From Candidatus Iainarchaeum sp. (lineage in GTDB: Archaea; Iainarchaeota; Iainarchaeia; Iainarchaeales; CSSED10-239), in NCBI GenBank assembly GCA_937968065.1, contig CALBUD010000026.1:1-5218 (forward strand): a DNA stretch of 5,218 nt. The letters are read 5' to 3'. Below are positions 1 through 5,218 of this stretch, piece after piece; the first letter of the stretch is position 1, and every line of letters begins with the position of its first letter. The translations under genes were made by a program, and so were the position numbers. The notes below the pieces were generated by a model. The model saw nothing but the letters and a program-made list of their open reading frames with translations, searched no databases and was not told the origin of the DNA.

Positions 1-296
1 TAACCGAAAAGAGAACCTAAACCTTCAGCAGCTGATTCTTCTGAAACTTCAACTTCTTCTTCTTTTTTCTCTTCAGCTTTTGTTTCTGTAGCACCTGTTG
101 CAGGTCCAGCAGCAACTGGCATTGATGCTTTTTCAATAGCTTCAGCAACATTTATATCTTTTAAAGAAGCTAAAAGACCTTTTAATTTTCCATCATCTAC
201 AGAAATTCCAGCAGAAGTTAAAACTTTTTTAACATTTTCTTCTGTTATTTCTTTTTTTGAATTGTGTAATAATAAAACTGCATATATATAATCCAT
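1..296 (-). CDS. rpl12: Archaeal ribosomal stalk protein P1 (aL12/L12e family). All 98 codons are present; only the last base of the stop codon falls outside the window.
   Basis: Manual translation from the ATG at 296..294 gives MDYIYAVLLLHNSKKEITEENVKKVLTSAGISVDDGKLKGLLASLKDINVAEAIEKASMPVAAGPATGATETKAEEKKEEEVEVSEESAAEGLGSLFG, followed by TA- at positions 2..1. The N-terminal M-[DE]-YIYA-x-LLLH motif, the Ala/Pro/Gly hinge, the acidic stretch and the GLG-x-LFG C-terminus are the hallmarks of archaeal P1. A GGTGA Shine-Dalgarno-like motif sits at 301..305, 4 nt upstream of the ATG. The gene follows uL10, as in the canonical operon. The ORF track omits it because the ORF is open at the window edge. 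Confidence 0.92.
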   Translation of the reverse strand, partial: MDYIYAVLLLHNSKKEITEENVKKVLTSAGISVDDGKLKGLLASLKDINVAEAIEKASMPVAAGPATGATETKAEEKKEEEVEVSEESAAEGLGSLFG

Positions 297-349: not shown

Positions 350-1105
350 CTATTTAGAGACCTCCTTTTCTAAAGCTTTTGCTTTTAGTTCAGCCATTAT
401 AATCATTGGCTCAATTGTTAAACTATTTGCATAACCTACTTCAACGCCTAAATTAATAGCTTGTCTTACAGCCATAATAAAGTTATTGTAAATTTCTTCA
501 CTATCAACATCTAAAACTTCTTTAGAATAGATTGTTCCATTTTCTTTAATTAAAACAACATCTAAAATAAGTTCTACAGGTTTAATATCAAGCTTTGATA
601 AAGTATTTACAACATCTTCTGTTATAACATCTCCTTCTTTGGAAATAACAGTATCTTTTGTAACATGTATTGTTGCACCTTTAACTTGAGCTTTTATACC
701 AACCTTTTTAAGATCTGAAAGTGCAGGGCCAGGCGGTAAACCAGTATCTCCTTCAGAAATTACAATGTCTATTGGAGAAATCATTCCTGCCTTTGCTTTT
801 GATCTTGCTTTATTTTTCTTAATTGAAGAATAAATATCAAAAGCATTATTATCAGATAAAACTAATATTGGTTGATTTGGAAGTTTTTCAATAATTTCTT
901 TTTCTCCTATCTTTTCAAGAGCCATTCTTAAAATGTTTCTGTTTGTAACTTTAAAAGATATTTGTGGAGTGTTTTTTCTTAATTTATGTAAAAGAGCTGC
1001 AGGAAAATTATTTAAGTCACCAATACCAATGGTTTTATATTTTTTTAAAATATCTGTAATAATTCCAAGTTCTTTTAATCTCCATGCTTTAAGATGTTTT
1101 GCCAT
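350..1105 (-). CDS. rplP0: Ribosomal protein uL10 (archaeal P0), an unusually short form of about 251 aa
   Basis: Translation contains AKAGMISPIDIVISEGDTGLPPGPALSDLKKVGIKAQVKGATIHVTKDTVISKEGDVIT...LSKLDIKPVEL...IYSKEVLDVDSEE. This matches the conserved archaeal P0 core (GxIAPxDxxVxxGxTGxPPGP...LGIxxxIxKGKIxIxxDxxVxKxGExxS...LGIKPxxxGL). The track starts the ORF at a GTG (1117). I prefer the ATG at 1105..1103 (MAKHLKAW...), because GGAGGTG at 1115..1121 lies 9 nt upstream of it and the uL1 stop codon ends at 1107. The stop codon is TAG at 350..352. Confidence 0.9.
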   Translation of the reverse strand: MAKHLKAWRLKELGIITDILKKYKTIGIGDLNNFPAALLHKLRKNTPQISFKVTNRNILRMALEKIGEKEIIEKLPNQPILVLSDNNAFDIYSSIKKNKARSKAKAGMISPIDIVISEGDTGLPPGPALSDLKKVGIKAQVKGATIHVTKDTVISKEGDVITEDVVNTLSKLDIKPVELILDVVLIKENGTIYSKEVLDVDSEEIYNNFIMAVRQAINLGVEVGYANSLTIEPMIIMAELKAKALEKEVSK

Positions 1106-1106
1106 A

Positions 1107-1763
1107 TTATAAAGCACCTCCTACCTTAACAGGTGCACTCATTGTTGTTTTATAAATAACATCTTTTATGTTTTGTTTTCCGTTTGGAAGTTTTTCAAAA
1201 AGAGAATTATAAACAACAAGTGTGTTTTCTGCAATATCAGAAACACTTTGACTTTTCTTTCCAATTCTTATCATTAAAGAAACAGAAGATTTATTTTTTT
1301 TATTACTTATTTTTACTTTTGATAATTGAGAAGCAATTAGATTTTTAACAGCTTGTTCATTTGGTGGCATAACAACAGGCATCTTACCTCTTGGACTTAA
1401 GACTTGTCCTAAAAATTTACCCACTGTAAGCATTGCTTGACCTTCTGCTAAAATCAGATCATGTTCATTTGCAAGTTTCTTTGCATCTTTTTTTGAAATT
1501 TTTGAAATCTCATCATCAAATATTATTTTATCAACAATTCCTTTTAAAGATTCTAAGTATTGTTTGTTTTTAACAAATGCAAGACTCTTTATTTTTGTTA
1601 TAAAAGGATGAGGAAGATTTACAAAATATTCAAATCTATGATCTTTGTTTTTTATATTTAGATTTTTGAAAGTTATTATTAGATCTATTGATTCATCAAA
1701 ATTTCTTTTCTTTAGATTTGAGAAAAGACCTTGAAGAGTTGACTCTAAAGATTTTTTATCCAT
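1107..1763 (-). CDS. rpl1: Ribosomal protein uL1 (archaeal L1)
   Basis: The 218-aa product has KKRNFDESIDLII near the N-terminus, LSPRGKMP in the middle and KTTMSAPVKV near the C-terminus. These correspond to conserved archaeal L1 blocks (compare Methanocaldococcus L1: PRNFTQSFEF, LGPRGKMP, KLTMGPAVKV). The ATG at 1763 is preceded by GGAGGTG at 1774..1780. The stop codon is TAA at 1107..1109. Confidence 0.93.
   Translation of the reverse strand: MDKKSLESTLQGLFSNLKKRNFDESIDLIITFKNLNIKNKDHRFEYFVNLPHPFITKIKSLAFVKNKQYLESLKGIVDKIIFDDEISKISKKDAKKLANEHDLILAEGQAMLTVGKFLGQVLSPRGKMPVVMPPNEQAVKNLIASQLSKVKISNKKNKSSVSLMIRIGKKSQSVSDIAENTLVVYNSLFEKLPNGKQNIKDVIYKTTMSAPVKVGGAL
1115..1121 (-). promoter_or_regulatory. 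Shine-Dalgarno-like site (GGAGGTG) for uL10/P0, embedded in the 3' end of the uL1 coding sequence
   Basis: The plus strand reads cacctcc, which is GGAGGTG on the minus strand, 9 nt upstream of the ATG at 1105. The identical heptamer precedes uL1. Confidence 0.6.
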
Positions 1764-1908: not shown

Positions 1909-2352
1909 TTAGTTAGGAATATAGTCTATTTTATCTATATATATATAATAGTCATCCTCTGTGAAAAGATGCATAAAAATACCAAAAGAAACATTGTAAT
2001 CAAAATTATAAAGTTCCATTATGTTTTCTCCACTTGATAGATATAAAGGATCTTTAAGAGTAAAAATACCACAAGTAACATTAATACCATAACTTGTTAT
2101 TTTTATTTCTTCTTGTGTTAAAGAAGGAGAATAGGTAAAAGTTAATTTATTGTCTTTGATATATGCATTTGAAATAAAAGTTCCTTCTTTAAACTCTAGT
2201 TCTTTATAATCATACTCATTTTGAAAATTAAGATTAGATAAAAATAGTTGGTTCCAAGAAACAATTACAAAAATAATCAAACCTAAAATAATAAAGTAAA
2301 CTATAAATAATAACATTGAAAATATTTTTGATTTTTTGTTTTTATTATTCAT
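1909..2352 (-). CDS. Hypothetical small protein with an N-terminal membrane anchor and a predicted extracytoplasmic beta-rich domain
   Basis: The ORF is open from 2367. I favour the ATG at 2352 (MNNKNKKSKIFSMLLFIVYFIILGLIIFVIVSW...), giving 147 aa. A basic N-terminus is followed by about 22 hydrophobic residues and then a Tyr/Asp/Asn-rich domain of about 110 aa. I recognise no family. The start overlaps the stop codon of the upstream gene (2345..2347) by 8 nt, or by 23 nt if the start is 2367, which suggests translational coupling. The choice of start is uncertain. Confidence 0.6.
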   Translation of the reverse strand: MNNKNKKSKIFSMLLFIVYFIILGLIIFVIVSWNQLFLSNLNFQNEYDYKELEFKEGTFISNAYIKDNKLTFTYSPSLTQEEIKITSYGINVTCGIFTLKDPLYLSSGENIMELYNFDYNVSFGIFMHLFTEDDYYIYIDKIDYIPN

Positions 2353-2956
2353 ATTTTTCCCAAACATATCTTGGAGTTTCTGTTACTCTATCAACACAGA
2401 TTAAATCAATATTTGTTTTAAAATCTTTTTCAATGTTATCTAAATTTTTAAAACCACATGCATTTCCTTCTTTTACTTCTGAGTTGTTTGGATTTAAGTT
2501 TAAAACTAAATCTCCATCAACAACCTGCCAACTAAACTTTGGTTCATTATCTTCTATATATGTACAGATTAATTGTTGATCTGGATTTTTAGGATCATCA
2601 ATAACATCTCCATCTCTTACATGTCCACATTTTTTTCCAGGTTCAAACTCTGATGGAACGTCATATTCTTTATTATCTTCTTTTACAATCCATACAAATC
2701 TAGGACAAGTATTTCCTATATATGTACAAATTAATTCTTGATTAGGGTTGTTTGGATCAGTTATTGTTTTTCCATCATCTCTGTGTCCACAACGACCATT
2801 TTCTCTTAGTTCTTCTGGGTTTTGTCCACTTTGATTTTGTAATAAAAAATTATTTGTATCTTTACCTATATTTATTTTTATAAAACCTGTTAATAAAGAG
2901 ATAATGACTAATATTATTAAAATTGAAATAATTATTATAAATATTTTATTTTTCAT
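2345..2956 (-). CDS. Hypothetical membrane-anchored protein with three tandem copies of a two-cysteine repeat domain
   Basis: The 203-aa product has the N-terminus MKNKIFIIIISILIILVIISLLTGFI (signal anchor). Three repeats follow: CGHRDDGKTITDPNNPNQELICTYIGNTCPRFVW (aa 56-89), CGHVRDGDVIDDPKNPDQQLICTYIEDNEPKFSW (aa 110-143) and CGFKNLDNIEKDFKTNIDLICVDRVTETPRYVW (aa 167-199). The ATG at 2956 is 3 nt after the stop codon of the upstream gene, and GAGG lies about 12 nt upstream. Confidence 0.8.
   Translation of the reverse strand: MKNKIFIIIISILIILVIISLLTGFIKINIGKDTNNFLLQNQSGQNPEELRENGRCGHRDDGKTITDPNNPNQELICTYIGNTCPRFVWIVKEDNKEYDVPSEFEPGKKCGHVRDGDVIDDPKNPDQQLICTYIEDNEPKFSWQVVDGDLVLNLNPNNSEVKEGNACGFKNLDNIEKDFKTNIDLICVDRVTETPRYVWEKYE
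2360..2458 (-). repeat. Cys-repeat copy 3 (aa 167-199), more diverged
   Basis: It retains CG at the start, LIC, and [FY]-V-W 12 residues after the second Cys. The Cys-Cys spacing is 20, and the DG/NP positions have degenerated. Confidence 0.6.
2528..2629 (-). repeat. Cys-repeat copy 2 (aa 110-143)
   Basis: It has the same motif and the same Cys-Cys spacing (21 residues) and Cys-Trp spacing (12 residues) as copy 1. Confidence 0.8.
2690..2791 (-). repeat. Cys-repeat copy 1 (aa 56-89 of the 203-aa protein)
   Basis: Motif C-G-x3-DG-x-x-I-x-D-P-x-NP-x3-LIC-x11-W. Similarity to copy 2 is also visible at the DNA level: tatatatgtacaaattaattcttgat at 2717 versus tatatatgtacagattaattgttgat at 2555, an offset of 162 nt (54 codons). 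Confidence 0.8.
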
Positions 2957-2959
2957 AAA

Positions 2960-3274
2960 CTATTCAGCCTCTTGCCAAATTCTTTGATTACCTGTGCCTG
3001 TAACTTTACAGATTAATGTTCTTTCTGGGTTTTGAGAGTCTTGTATAGTTTTACCTTCATCAACCCCTCTACAAAAAGAACCTAAAGTTGCATTAGAGAT
3101 AACAGGATGATTTTCATTTCCTAAAGGTTCTTGAGTATCAGGTTCTAATGATTCATCTGTTGGAAGAAAAGTATCTTCTTTAGATAAATTTGATTTTGTT
3201 GGTTTAAATATTAAAAATAAAATTAAACCTATTAATATTAAAATTAAAATTCCAAATATTATTTTTTTATTCAT
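2960..3274 (-). CDS. Hypothetical membrane-anchored protein with one copy of the same two-cysteine repeat domain. It is a paralog of the downstream 203-aa gene.
   Basis: The 104-aa product starts with MNKKIIFGILILILIGLILFLIF (signal anchor), followed by an acidic, Pro-rich linker. Then comes CRGVDEGKTIQDSQNPERTLICKVTGTGNQRIW (aa 68-100, nt 2975..3073), with a Cys-Cys spacing of 21. A partial SD (GTGA, 3281..3284) lies 6 nt upstream of the ATG at 3274. The gene starts 23 nt after the GLUG ORF stop codon. Confidence 0.78.
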   Translation of the reverse strand: MNKKIIFGILILILIGLILFLIFKPTKSNLSKEDTFLPTDESLEPDTQEPLGNENHPVISNATLGSFCRGVDEGKTIQDSQNPERTLICKVTGTGNQRIWQEAE

Positions 3275-3297: not shown

Positions 3298-4491
3298 TTA
3301 TTCTGGAAGAGGTGTTTGAACATTATTTCTTAAGTAAGGATAAGTTGTTCCCTCTGTGATATTCCAGATATCTGTAAAATTCCAATCAATAAAGGTTGAT
3401 TGTTGTTTCATTTCTATTGTTGTTTTTCCAGTTGCACCTAAAGCACTGGTTAATTGATTAGATGTTTCTGTATCCCAAAAATTGTTTGAAAAAATAGGAC
3501 CATCACTCACTGAAAACCCTTTATTAGTAGGATTTTCAGAATCTTGATAAATTACTTGACCAATTGAATATGAGTTGATTATATTTGAATTATTATTTGA
3601 ATGACTTTCAAAAGTAGTTACAAATCCACCTATATTATTACTATCTCCCGATAATCTTATAACATCACTTAAAGAATAACTATTGGTTATATTTGAAACT
3701 TTAGAAATTAATCCTCCAACATAATCAATTCCAGAAACAGTTCCTGTTGAATAACTTTCATATATAGGTGTATCAGAAGCACCGATTAATCCACCTACAT
3801 AAGCGTTACCTACAACGTTTGCATCTGCAAAACTATATTTAATGGAGATATCTTTTAAGATTCCAGTACCACCCCACCCGTTACCTACAAGACCTCCTAC
3901 CTTATTATTACCGGTTACAGAACCTATAAAATAATTATTTGAAAAATTTAAAGTTGACCATAGAGATCCAATTAAACCACCAACATTATTTTTACTACTG
4001 TTTACAACACCTGTTGCATAACAATTAGAAATCTCTGTGTATTTTGGGGTACCAACTAAAGAACCCACTGCTACATATTGTGCATTTGAATCTAAAATAG
4101 TTACATTTTCTAAACCTAAATTTGTAATTTTAGAATTTTGTGTAGTTCCAAATAAACCAACTGAAAACCCACCACCAATAGGTTCTGGATTTGTTATATT
4201 CAAATCTATAATTTTGTATCCAGCACCATCAAAAATACCTTTAAACGGAAACTCGTTACTACCTATTGGTTCAAAATTAATGCCAGACATATTAATATCT
4301 GAACCTAAAATATAACTACCGGTTAATCGATTTCTTACACAATCAAGTTTTGTGGGAGTATCAATAACATATCTATTTTGAGAATCTAAAGTAATTTCTT
4401 CTGAACAGAAAGGGGTGTAAATACCATTATAGAAGTGTTTTGCCAAGAAAAGAAAGGGTAACCATTGTTTATTGAAGAATCTTGCTTCCAA
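3298..4491 (-). CDS. GLUG-motif, beta-helix adhesin-like surface protein, C-terminal module. It is probably not an independent gene but the continuation of the upstream frame (4386..5218).
   Basis: The translation shows the typical module: YILGSDINMSG..FEPIG....FKGIFDGAGYKIIDLNI.....VGLFG....KITNLGLENVTI. Repeated turns of the Y-x-x-G-x-V-x-G-x-x-x-VGGL[IV]G type follow (NVGGLIGS, KVGGLVGN, YVGGLIGA, YVGGLISK, IGGFVTT). The module closes with FWDTETSNQ..S.G..GKTTIEMKQQSTFIDWNFTDIWNI.EG..YPYL, as in GLUG (PF07581-type) proteins. There are about 9 N-x-S/T sequons. The only start codon in this frame upstream of the module is a TTG at 4491 with no SD. There is no ATG before residue 68 and no signal peptide. 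Confidence 0.85.
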   Translation of the reverse strand: MEARFFNKQWLPFLFLAKHFYNGIYTPFCSEEITLDSQNRYVIDTPTKLDCVRNRLTGSYILGSDINMSGINFEPIGSNEFPFKGIFDGAGYKIIDLNITNPEPIGGGFSVGLFGTTQNSKITNLGLENVTILDSNAQYVAVGSLVGTPKYTEISNCYATGVVNSSKNNVGGLIGSLWSTLNFSNNYFIGSVTGNNKVGGLVGNGWGGTGILKDISIKYSFADANVVGNAYVGGLIGASDTPIYESYSTGTVSGIDYVGGLISKVSNITNSYSLSDVIRLSGDSNNIGGFVTTFESHSNNNSNIINSYSIGQVIYQDSENPTNKGFSVSDGPIFSNNFWDTETSNQLTSALGATGKTTIEMKQQSTFIDWNFTDIWNITEGTTYPYLRNNVQTPLPE

Positions 4492-5218
4492 ACACTACCA
4501 AAATCCCAGTTAGTAAAAGTATTTTCATCAGGAACAGAAGTTAATTGTAAAGTGGTTTTACCTTCAGCATTACCAAAACTGGTTAGTTGATTTGAAGAAT
4601 CTACATCCCAATAATTATTAGAATCAATATAACAAGTATCAGATCCATCTGAATCTGTAAAACCTAAAAAACCTTTATCTGTTGGGTTGGTCGCACCTTC
4701 AAAAATGACTTCTCCTTTTGAATAATTATAATTTAAAGAACCGCTATTATGATAACCTAGAAAACCACCTATGTTATTTGAATCTCCAGAAAGTCTTGTA
4801 ACAGAACCTAGAGAATAATTGTTTATAACTTCTCCTTCATAAAAATAACCAGAAAAACCACCAACATAATTATTTCCTGAAACAGAACCAGAAGAATAAT
4901 TACTATTTAGTTTACCTTTAATATCTCCTGAAAAACCACCAACATAATTGTTTCCTGAAACATCTCCTGTTGAATAATTAGAATATCGTTTTCCGCTACC
5001 TCTACCTAAAAAACCACCTACATAATCATTTCCTGAAACATCTCCTGTTGAATAATTAGAATATAGTTTTCCGCTACCTCTACCTGAAAAACCACCTACA
5101 TAATTATTTCCAGAAACAATAGAAGAAGAAGAGTTGTTTGAATAAGCCCCTCCTGATAAATATCCTGAAAAACCACCTACATAATTATTTCCAGAAACAA
5201 TAGAAGAAGAAGAGTTGT
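4386..5218 (-). CDS. GLUG-motif, beta-helix adhesin-like protein, upstream module. The 5' end is truncated by the window edge. The frame differs from 3298..4491 and overlaps it by 106 nt.
   Basis: Manual translation with codon 5216..5214 = AAC gives NSSSSIVSGNNYVGGFSGYLSGGAYSNNSSSSIVSGNNYVGGFSGRGSGKLYSNYSTGDVSGNDYVGGFLGRGSGKRYSNYSTGDVSGNNYVGGFSGDIKGKLNSNYSSGSVSGNNYVGGFSGYFYEGEVINNYSLGSVTRLSGDSNNIGGFLGYHNSGSLNYNYSKGEVIFEGATNPTDKGFLGFTDSDGSDTCYIDSNNYWDVDSSNQLTSFGNAEGKTTLQLTSVPDENTFTNWDFGSVWKQDSSINNGYPFFSWQNTSIMVFTPLSVQKKLL, ending at TAG (4388..4386). It has the same turn repeats of about 26 aa and the same closing motif (YWD..S.NQ..S.G...GKTT....TF.NWDF..VW......GYP) as the downstream module. 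The ORF track omits it because the ORF is open at the edge. Confidence 0.85.
   Translation of the reverse strand, partial: NSSSSIVSGNNYVGGFSGYLSGGAYSNNSSSSIVSGNNYVGGFSGRGSGKLYSNYSTGDVSGNDYVGGFLGRGSGKRYSNYSTGDVSGNNYVGGFSGDIKGKLNSNYSSGSVSGNNYVGGFSGYFYEGEVINNYSLGSVTRLSGDSNNIGGFLGYHNSGSLNYNYSKGEVIFEGATNPTDKGFLGFTDSDGSDTCYIDSNNYWDVDSSNQLTSFGNAEGKTTLQLTSVPDENTFTNWDFGSVWKQDSSINNGYPFFSWQNTSIMVFTPLSVQKKLL
4873..5218 (-). repeat. In-frame tandem DNA repeats encoding beta-helix turns, with periods of 78 nt and 81 nt
   Basis: 4951..5028 and 5029..5106 differ at only 3 of 78 positions. A more diverged copy lies at 4873..4950. 5083..5137 and 5164..5218 are an exact 55-nt direct repeat with an 81-nt offset, and this repeat reaches the window edge. 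Confidence 0.9.

Follow-up and report, generated by a model that had tools for sequence, protein, structure and literature searches.

A new two-cysteine module in predicted membrane-anchored small proteins encoded next to a GLUG-motif gene in an archaeal contig

Two adjacent small genes of the archaeal contig CALBUD010000026.1 encode one and three copies of a unit characterized by two cysteines and a tryptophan, and the question raised by this locus is whether the unit is a genuine domain and what it does in the proteins that carry it. The stretch analysed here, called the window throughout, comprises 5218 nt with ~27% GC, and all of its genes are on the minus strand. In the order of transcription it contains a GLUG frame (5216..4384), a GLUG-motif frame (4491..3298), a 104-aa gene, a 203-aa gene, a gene for a 147/152-aa protein and then ribosomal genes. 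An earlier note, made from the letters of the window, had interpreted the unit as an unrecognized repeat domain of anchored surface proteins. This interpretation was found to be largely right, the exceptions being the 'recent duplication', the disulfide, which is plausible, and a local immunoglobulin (Ig)-like resemblance. The repeat is real, conserved, selected and rare, it is part of a conserved architecture and gene order, and it matches no known family.

The module and the proteins that carry it

Relatives of the two proteins were detected on three other contigs: P0002 and P0003 are orthologues of the 203-aa protein (contigs L001 and L002, respectively), and P0006 (102 aa, contig L003) is a relative with one unit. 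The features of the window that bear on the module are the following.

2960..3274, minus strand: 104-aa gene with a single module (open reading frame, ORF; tip, anchor, stalk and C-terminal module); orthologues in L001 (145 aa) and L002 (147 aa) lie directly after the GLUG gene
3206..3274, minus strand: N-terminal tip (MNKK) and hydrophobic anchor of the 104-aa protein, residues 1-23; best 19-residue window 5-23, mean Kyte-Doolittle value 3.49, tip charge +2
2963..3082, minus strand: module of the 104-aa protein, residues 65-104 (Cys68, Cys89, Trp100); hidden Markov model (HMM) domain score 58 bits; the Trp is followed by 4 residues to the end
2345..2956, minus strand: 203-aa gene with three modules (ORF); orthologues P0002 (57% identity) and P0003 (54%)
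2882..2956, minus strand: N-terminal tip (MKNK) and hydrophobic anchor of the 203-aa protein, residues 1-25; best window 5-23, mean Kyte-Doolittle value 3.42, tip charge +2
2681..2800, minus strand: module 1, residues 53-92 (Cys56, His58, Cys77, extra Cys84, Trp89); 81 bits against profile A1; identity to module 1 of the orthologues 78-80% over residues 53-92
2519..2638, minus strand: module 2, residues 107-146 (Cys110, His112, Cys131, Glu138, Trp143); from position check, alignment and AlphaFold2 unit model
2348..2467, minus strand: module 3, residues 164-203 (Cys167, Cys187, Trp199), the most divergent copy; 58 bits; the Trp is followed by 4 residues to the end

A regular-expression search combined with a position check mapped the four units exactly to the sites proposed before (nt 2690..2791, 2528..2629 and 2360..2458 in the 203-aa gene and 2975..3073 in the 104-aa gene), and in all four the offsets were as described, 20-21 residues from Cys to Cys and 11-12 from the second Cys to the Trp. 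The full motif derived in the earlier note fitted copies 1 and 2 and the single copy but not copy 3, which retains C-G...L-I-C...P-R-Y-V-W and has lost the DG, I-x-D and NP elements. The exclusion of some small cysteine-rich folds could be upheld: the unit has two Cys (three in module 1 and in P0006) in contrast to the six Cys and three disulfides of Kazal, ShK and knottin-type modules, and with a Cys spacing of 20-21 and no CXXC it is not a zinc ribbon.

All seven family proteins (7/7) are built on one plan, in which a Lys/Arg-rich tip is followed by a single anchor, a low-complexity stalk rich in N, E, D, P and T and of very variable length, and one or more modules. In these proteins the tip charge ranges from +1 to +5, the only hydrophobic segment has a mean Kyte-Doolittle value of 3.0-3.8 over 19 residues, and the ectodomains are acidic. 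For the two proteins of the window this agrees with the Lys-rich tip and N-terminal anchor noticed at first reading (tips of +2, Kyte-Doolittle windows of 3.4-3.5, no further hydrophobic segment). The module is 37-40 residues long and always C-terminal, and the linkers between units are variable and acidic. Because the chain stops 2-5 residues past the last Trp in every protein, the C-terminal border of the domain is fixed, and folds that need chain beyond the Trp are excluded. The hydrophobic segment (19-22 residues) has neither an A-x-A site nor the class III [KR]-G motif; a class III pilin signal had already been denied, and the N-termini, MKNK-IFIII and MNKK-IIFGI, have no Gly or Ala at -1. 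As judged from sequence, the segment is probably an uncleaved signal-anchor, and by the positive-inside rule the C-terminus is predicted to be outside, which is also where the ectodomain had been placed before.

For module 2 with its flanks (54 aa, ten aligned units) AlphaFold2 gave a model with a predicted local distance difference test (pLDDT) score of 78.4 and a predicted template modelling (pTM) score of 0.60. The strands of the model are at positions 16-18, 26-31 and 39-44 of the 54-aa construct, and a single unit is predicted to fold alone into a three-stranded beta-sheet. If the ends of the strands in the 26-31/39-44 hairpin pair, Cys29, which is the second Cys, is directly opposite Trp41. 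The first Cys (Cys8) is beside an isolated bridge residue, and the strand register leaves its position unfixed; a Cys-Cys disulfide within the unit is plausible.

Relatives, coding evidence and evolution of the repeats

Word-indexed searches with the 203-aa and 104-aa proteins returned the queries themselves and only the two orthologues P0002 and P0003, and a word-indexed search with an 11-unit alignment, a query too short for a word index, returned nothing. An exhaustive search of 1.84 billion representatives with a profile of nine units detected P0006, which was absent from the query profile, at E=8.3e-9 among 1.84e9 proteins. Profiles made from one type of protein also recognized the other: the profile of the three single-copy modules alone found 3-repeat proteins at E=6.6e-16 and 2.5e-10 (Z=1e6), and the profile of the 3-repeat units alone found P0006 at 4e-12 and the 145-aa protein L001_145 at 2e-5. 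In the 12 distinct units from the four loci both Cys and the Trp are invariant, and Gly9, Leu22, Ile23 and Pro32 are nearly invariant. Conservation of the Cys and Trp positions in homologues had been named in the earlier note as a check, and together with the significant cross-profile matches it establishes a real repeat domain. Since the profile search of 1.84 billion representatives found only this family, beyond partial matches to large proteins, and the family was seen at four loci, the module is a genuinely new and very narrow domain family, and the lineage restriction suspected before was borne out. The short nine-unit profile missed L001_145 and L002_147 (the 147-aa protein of L002) at E<=0.001, so divergent single-unit members may be under-counted.

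No further relatives were found in the GTDB representative genomes (with the 3-repeat alignment and the permease alignment), in the JGI metagenomes (with the alignment and with a back-translated LICTY...P[KR][FY]xW pattern) or in the IMG/VR viral contigs (with two patterns), and neither tblastn against phages and plasmids nor Rfam gave a match. The matches returned by the collection scans, a Treponema permease, an NHL-repeat gene and pattern-only matches, were unrelated.

Comparison with known families was likewise negative over the repeat. Pfam at E<=1 gave only weak matches on the hydrophobic N-terminus, NCBIfam contained nothing relevant over the repeat, PHROGs gave only E>=0.03, the best PDB sequences in hmmsearch had E 0.45-1, and Foldseek with the pLDDT-78 unit model, a 54-residue query of low power, gave a best E of 2.0 (PDB) and 0.74 (BFVD). 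The claim that the motif matches no known family thus stood for Pfam, NCBIfam, PHROGs, PDB and Foldseek but has to be qualified by a local likeness to the strand-B Cys and strand-C Trp of Ig domains. Eleven large proteins also came up in the exhaustive profile search, through numerous short matches to part of the profile (E=7e-9 to 1e-3, profile positions ~21-47); seven of the eight that were scanned were Ig, I-set or PKD repeat proteins, and P0016 was a Flg_new_2 repeat protein. When the unit profile was compared with Ig units by hhalign, 24 columns were aligned with a probability of 85%, placing module positions 22-45 on the stretch from the strand-B Cys to the strand-C Trp. The Ig likeness is real but local, and the module is not an Ig domain. 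Three other candidates were tried and set aside. A ricin-B/CBM13 (QxW)3 beta-trefoil was rejected on the absence of PF00652 and PF14200 matches, the existence of single-copy proteins, a unit predicted to fold alone with three strands and Foldseek rows without a trefoil. In D-G-K-T-I-T-D-P-N-N, read as an EF-hand or dockerin-like Ca loop, the Gly and Ile are, by reading, off the D-x-[DN]-x-[DN]-G-x-I register. For the L002 147-aa protein, PHROGs gave weak matches to Rz-like spanin and holin (E=7e-4 and 2e-3), which extend over no more than anchor and acidic stalk and were deemed compositional.

The ratio of nonsynonymous to synonymous substitution rates (dN/dS) of the three-unit gene, 0.30-0.39, indicates purifying selection, the differences between L001 and L002 in this gene are distributed over the codon positions as 30/19/49, which favours the sense frame, and orthologues are 44-100% identical in the modules as compared to 16-27% in the stalks. 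On the grounds of homology, invariant residues, dN/dS and the higher conservation of modules than of stalks, the ORFs are translated and the unit is their selected part. If the ORFs were untranslated and the repeat were a DNA-level or chance feature, the AT-richness of the genome and antisense ORFs of 149 and 169 aa opposite the orthologous genes would fit; this view is contradicted by the dN/dS values, the third-codon-position bias, the invariant Cys, Cys and Trp and the significant profile E-values, as well as by the preservation of the ORFs and their order in 3 loci at ~55% protein identity with tight, operon-like spacing, and the chance that it is correct is negligible. The antisense ORFs opposite the three-unit gene are at L001 2356-2805 (minus strand, 149 aa), L002 511-1020 (minus strand, 169 aa) and 2316-2579 of the window (plus strand, 87 aa); because the 30/19/49 substitution pattern supports the sense frame, they are probably by-products of codon usage.

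When the repeats of the three-unit proteins were compared position by position across loci, identities were 79-82% for the first, 67-69% for the second and 42% for the third repeat; within a protein, repeats 1 and 2 are 54% identical, and repeat 3 is 21-29% identical to the others. Because the repeats are position-orthologous across loci, the triplication predates the split of the lineages, whose proteins are ~55% identical. With an offset of 162 nt, copies 1 and 2 of the 203-aa gene share 72% identity over 82 nt. The internal duplication proposed before was not recent, however: as far as these sequences tell, the duplication of repeats 1 and 2 is the youngest step, yet not a recent one.

Two sub-types of the module seem to exist, a GLUG-adjacent, fast-evolving single-copy type and a permease-adjacent type with one or three units. 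The GLUG-adjacent single-copy members are 21-42% identical among themselves with a dN/dS of 0.5-0.9. P0006 is closest to repeats 1 and 2 (38-46%) and distant from the GLUG-adjacent single-copy type (21-26%), and the position of its gene, directly upstream of an orthologous permease gene, matches that of the three-unit gene of L001. In modules 1 and 2 and in P0006 (L003 10001-10309) the second residue after the first Cys is a His (C-G-H), and the same units have a Cys or Glu at the seventh position after the second Cys; the latter columns read N-T-C-P-R in module 1, D-N-E-P-K in module 2 and D-S-C-P-K in P0006, and in the window the codons of Cys84 and His58 are at 2704-2706 and 2782-2784. Neither the C-G-H His nor the Cys/Glu after the second Cys is present in module 3 or in the GLUG-adjacent single-copy proteins.

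When L001 1801-3100 was aligned with L002 1-1193, nucleotide identity was 40-60% in the single-unit gene and in the part of the three-unit gene that encodes anchor and stalk; at the first module it rose sharply to 87-100% and stayed there up to the end of the contig. At the protein level identity is 41% in the anchor, 21% in the stalk and 95-100% in the modules. This mosaic suggests a recombination breakpoint or a hypervariable cassette at the stalk-module boundary, and variability of the stalk and of the single-copy protein against constancy of the modules is a pattern typical of exposed surface proteins.

Neighbouring genes

The other features of the window are the following.

3298..4491, minus strand: C-terminal part of the GLUG-motif surface protein (397-aa frame); Pfam PF07581 Glug, E=6.9e-9; stops 23 nt before the 104-aa gene
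4384..5216, minus strand: upstream GLUG-repeat frame in a different reading frame, running off the contig; the same gene with a frame break or a separate gene
1909..2367, minus strand: fourth gene of the cluster, 147/152-aa protein; likely ATG at 2352; same Lys-rich tip and single anchor, no module
1107..1763, minus strand: rpl1; archaeal model PRK04203, below the equivalog cut-off
350..1117, minus strand: rpl10/P0; archaeal model PRK04019, below the equivalog cut-off; insertion domain PF17777
1-~300, minus strand: start of rpl12/P1 (MDYIYAVLLLHN…), running off the contig end

The PF07581 match of the GLUG-motif neighbour has 36 bits against a cut-off of 20.5 and lies in 3 stretches. The order GLUG gene, one-module gene, three-module gene is kept in the window, L001 and L002, with gaps of 3-23 nt or overlaps between the genes, and the GLUG proteins end without a C-terminal hydrophobic segment. 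An adhesin role has been proposed for GLUG proteins in host-associated archaea (PMC9723798), and of the adhesin neighbour that the earlier note had seen here, the adjoining GLUG-motif protein was confirmed, whereas the label adhesin is only putative. The upstream GLUG frame is open from the contig end at 5216 to a TAG at ~4384 (…GYPFFSWQNTSIMVFTPLSVQKKLL, stop), and the 397-aa GLUG frame starts at 4491 in another frame; a 1-nt shift near a C4/T3 run (…ACACCCCTTTCTG…) would fuse the two. The break at 4384-4491 may mean that two GLUG genes lie side by side, that the gene is a pseudogene, or that a frameshift or an error of assembly separates the frames. At 4848-5118 a 78-nt stretch is repeated in tandem (3.5 copies, 85% matches); the repeat codes for 26-aa GLUG units (…NYSTGDVSGNNYVGGFSG…) and is likely a site of copy-number variation in a surface protein.

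A permease of the ArsP/SO_0444/SaoE type (PF03773) is encoded at L001 3007-3993 and at L003 10302-11291, the two proteins being 67% identical. The NCBIfam models for SO_0444 Cu/Zn efflux and SaoE matched with E=5e-19 and 3e-14; because these scores are far below the equivalog cut-offs, membership can be assigned at the family level only. The Cys-x-Cys motif of the family, discussed as metal-binding (bioRxiv 10.1101/2022.07.06.499078), is kept as PICAC in L001 and PICSC in L003. In L003 the region 8000-20309, which includes P0006 and the permease, has 23-25% GC as compared to 29-30% upstream and carries Bro-N, ORF6N, AAA_14 and AlbA_2/HATPase genes; it may be a mobile or defence island.

In the window the place after the three-module gene is occupied not by a permease but by the gene of the 147/152-aa anchored protein, which belongs to no Pfam, NCBIfam or PHROG family; in L001 this gene is not at this position, and the permease is there instead. 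With its likely ATG at 2352, the 147/152-aa frame shares 8 nt, including the stop codon, with the end of the 203-aa gene, an arrangement suggestive of translational coupling. An AT-rich spacer of 145 nt separates the frame from rpl1. P0 (L10) carries the archaeal/eukaryotic insertion domain PF17777, and since L1 and L10 fit PRK04203 and PRK04019 below the equivalog cut-offs, the host is taken to be a divergent AT-rich archaeon, for which DPANN-like is a reasonable guess. P0 is 255 aa long and the archaeal models were matched only to ~250-260 of 293-353 positions, and for this reason the usual C-terminal P1-binding region and acidic tail seem to be missing.

Interpretation and comparison with known systems

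The explanation that we favour, with a probability of roughly 0.45, is that the module serves as a stalked knob, stapled by a disulfide, for binding or docking in concert with the GLUG surface protein; the structural half of this proposal is much firmer than the functional half. Both genes would encode small type-II (N-in, C-out) anchored surface proteins, in which the Lys-rich cytoplasmic tip, the anchor and the fast-evolving stalk hold the C-terminal module or modules away from the membrane. The module itself would be an autonomous three-stranded antiparallel beta-sheet of 37-40 residues. A disulfide would link the first Cys, which is part of the N-terminal segment, to the second Cys on the central strand, and the Trp of the last strand, opposite the second Cys, would pack on this bond in a manner similar to the Cys-Cys-Trp 'pin' of Ig domains. 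The GLUG-repeat protein, which would be secreted and co-transcribed and lacks a C-terminal anchor, might be tethered to the cell by the module, or both might bind the same external target. The outside location, the disulfide and the binding or docking role of the module are inferred.

Several observations weigh against this explanation. The N-terminus of the GLUG protein lies beyond the known sequence and may have an anchor of its own there. The gene for P0006 in L003 is not beside a GLUG gene, and the permease gene, which starts 5 nt after the three-module gene in L001 and overlaps the P0006 gene by 8 nt in L003, suggests another partner. Module 1 and P0006 contain a third Cys, and because the Cys counts of the ectodomains are odd (7 in the 3-repeat protein, 3 in P0006), one Cys is left unpaired. 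Finally, the structure prediction recommended in the earlier note succeeded for one unit, whereas AlphaFold2 on the whole 203-aa protein with 3 sequences reached a pLDDT of only 40, which is uninformative and unusable.

Some of these observations would be accounted for if the module were a unit of the outer face that binds soft metals or metalloids through thiols, or acts in thiol redox, and receives or buffers what the ArsP/SO_0444/SaoE-type permease exports, akin to CusF or CopZ. The permease gene is directly downstream in both L001 and L003, its product is related to SO_0444 Cu/Zn efflux and SaoE proteins and has the Cys-x-Cys motif, modules 1 and 2 and P0006 offer four possible ligands (Cys2, His, Cys/Glu), and ectodomains that contain disulfides only would rarely have an odd number of Cys. 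Moreover, the near-identity of L001 and L002 begins at module 1 and continues past the end of the gene, whereas the two diverge upstream, which implies that the modules travel with the downstream side. However, the only universal residues are the two Cys and the Trp, and a pair of Cys by itself would be a weak site; known metal motifs, CxxC and MxCxxC among them, are absent, as are Pfam matches to HMA or CusF, and the co-occurrence of His with Cys/Glu derives from at most three independent unit lineages. In the window the three-module gene is followed by the 147/152-aa protein gene and rpl1 rather than by a permease gene, and because of this absence from the window itself we rank the thiol-metal function below the docking knob and consider it unlikely. 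A combination of the two, more doubtful still, would be an undescribed surface system with two forms of the module, one a minimal anchor for GLUG docking and the other, on the permease side, a C-G-H...C...[C/E]...W site for soft metals (Cys2-His-Cys/Glu, capped by the Trp) that accepts the cargo of the exporter, the switch from 40-60% to 87-100% identity then marking a recombining variable cassette.

There is little probability that the units are pieces of a larger known fold, either degenerate or truncated Ig-like domains or subdomains of a ricin-type (QxW)3 trefoil. The partial profile matches to Ig, I-set and PKD repeat proteins and the 24 columns aligned by hhalign at 85% probability speak for it, and three C...C...W repeats with a 'W-Q-V-V-D-G-D-L' tail after module 2 look superficially ricin-B-like by reading, not by any tool. 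Nevertheless, neither protein has a Pfam Ig or Ricin match at E<=1, the unit is predicted by AlphaFold2 to fold alone, Foldseek found no Ig or trefoil match at E<0.7, the acidic linkers vary, and all single-copy proteins would be incomplete. As the chains stop 2-5 residues past the Trp, there is no room for Ig strands D to G or for the Cys of strand F, and the Ig reading is largely refuted. Even less credible, in our estimation, are precursors of secreted Cys-stabilized peptides of the archaeocin or bacteriocin type, with the N-terminal segment as a signal or pro-region, from which one or three units of ~37 aa would be released. Class II bacteriocins are disulfide-bonded, and the size of the unit and its Cys...Cys...Trp content are reminiscent of them; the units are C-terminal with acidic spacers between them, and a transporter gene is adjacent in two loci. 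That transporter, however, belongs to a metal/metalloid efflux family, no protease, immunity or ABC-export gene was seen, and no double-glycine, dibasic or other consistent cleavage motif precedes the units. At 19-22 residues, the hydrophobic segment exceeds the usual length in a cleaved signal peptide, no A-x-A site is present, and the three units are conserved in a position-specific manner, being neither near-identical nor hypervariable.

If the module is real, as the results indicate, it would be a new, very small, autonomous extracellular fold unit in the largely unannotated surface proteome of small-genome archaea, whose lifestyle depends on cell-cell contact, and it would provide a defined 40-residue target beside GLUG proteins for structural and binding studies. 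With four loci among billions of proteins its practical weight is limited, and it is best seen as a candidate for a domain family entry and as a lead on GLUG anchoring or on partners of the permease.

Among known systems, the closest local resemblance is to Ig domains (I-set PF07679, Ig_3 PF13927): the module stretch L-[IV]-C-x(6-7)-P-x-[FY]-x-W falls on their strand-B Cys and on the strand-C Trp ~12 residues further on, and in both the Trp is expected to pack beside the structural Cys. In contrast to Ig domains, the module has no strands D to G, no strand-F Cys (Y-x-C) and no Cys after the Trp within the unit; the presumed partner of its Cys is 20 residues upstream rather than ~55 downstream, it has 37-40 aa and three predicted strands rather than a seven-strand sandwich of 70-110 aa, and there is no Pfam Ig match. 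Two working arrangements can be compared by functional analogy only. Cohesin-dockerin systems resemble the locus in that a small anchored protein with repeated modules is encoded beside a large secreted repeat protein whose C-terminus is not hydrophobic, but the module has no sequence or fold similarity to them and no dockerin Ca-loop motif, and the interaction is putative. CusF and CopZ-like metallochaperones, the counterpart for the metal-binding alternative, share the occurrence of a small extracytoplasmic Cys/His/Trp protein beside a soft-metal efflux permease (PF03773 in L001 and L003); they differ in that the module has no HMA or CusF homology and no MxCxxC and the window no permease, and the metal binding is putative.

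In general design the module resembles fibronectin type I and CBM14/peritrophin-A domains (Blo t 12, Avr4), which are repeated extracellular binding modules of 35-70 aa with a small antiparallel sheet and Cys-dependent stability. Representatives of CBM14 and fibronectin type I domains were among the top, non-significant Foldseek rows, which included 2mfk, 4z4a, 1fbr and 3mql (E=3-9, TM-scores 0.27-0.32). Those domains have 2-3 disulfides as opposed to one Cys pair in the module, show no sequence similarity to it and are eukaryotic, not archaeal. The module belongs with the familiar class of small Cys-stabilized extracellular repeat modules, and the family itself is previously undescribed.

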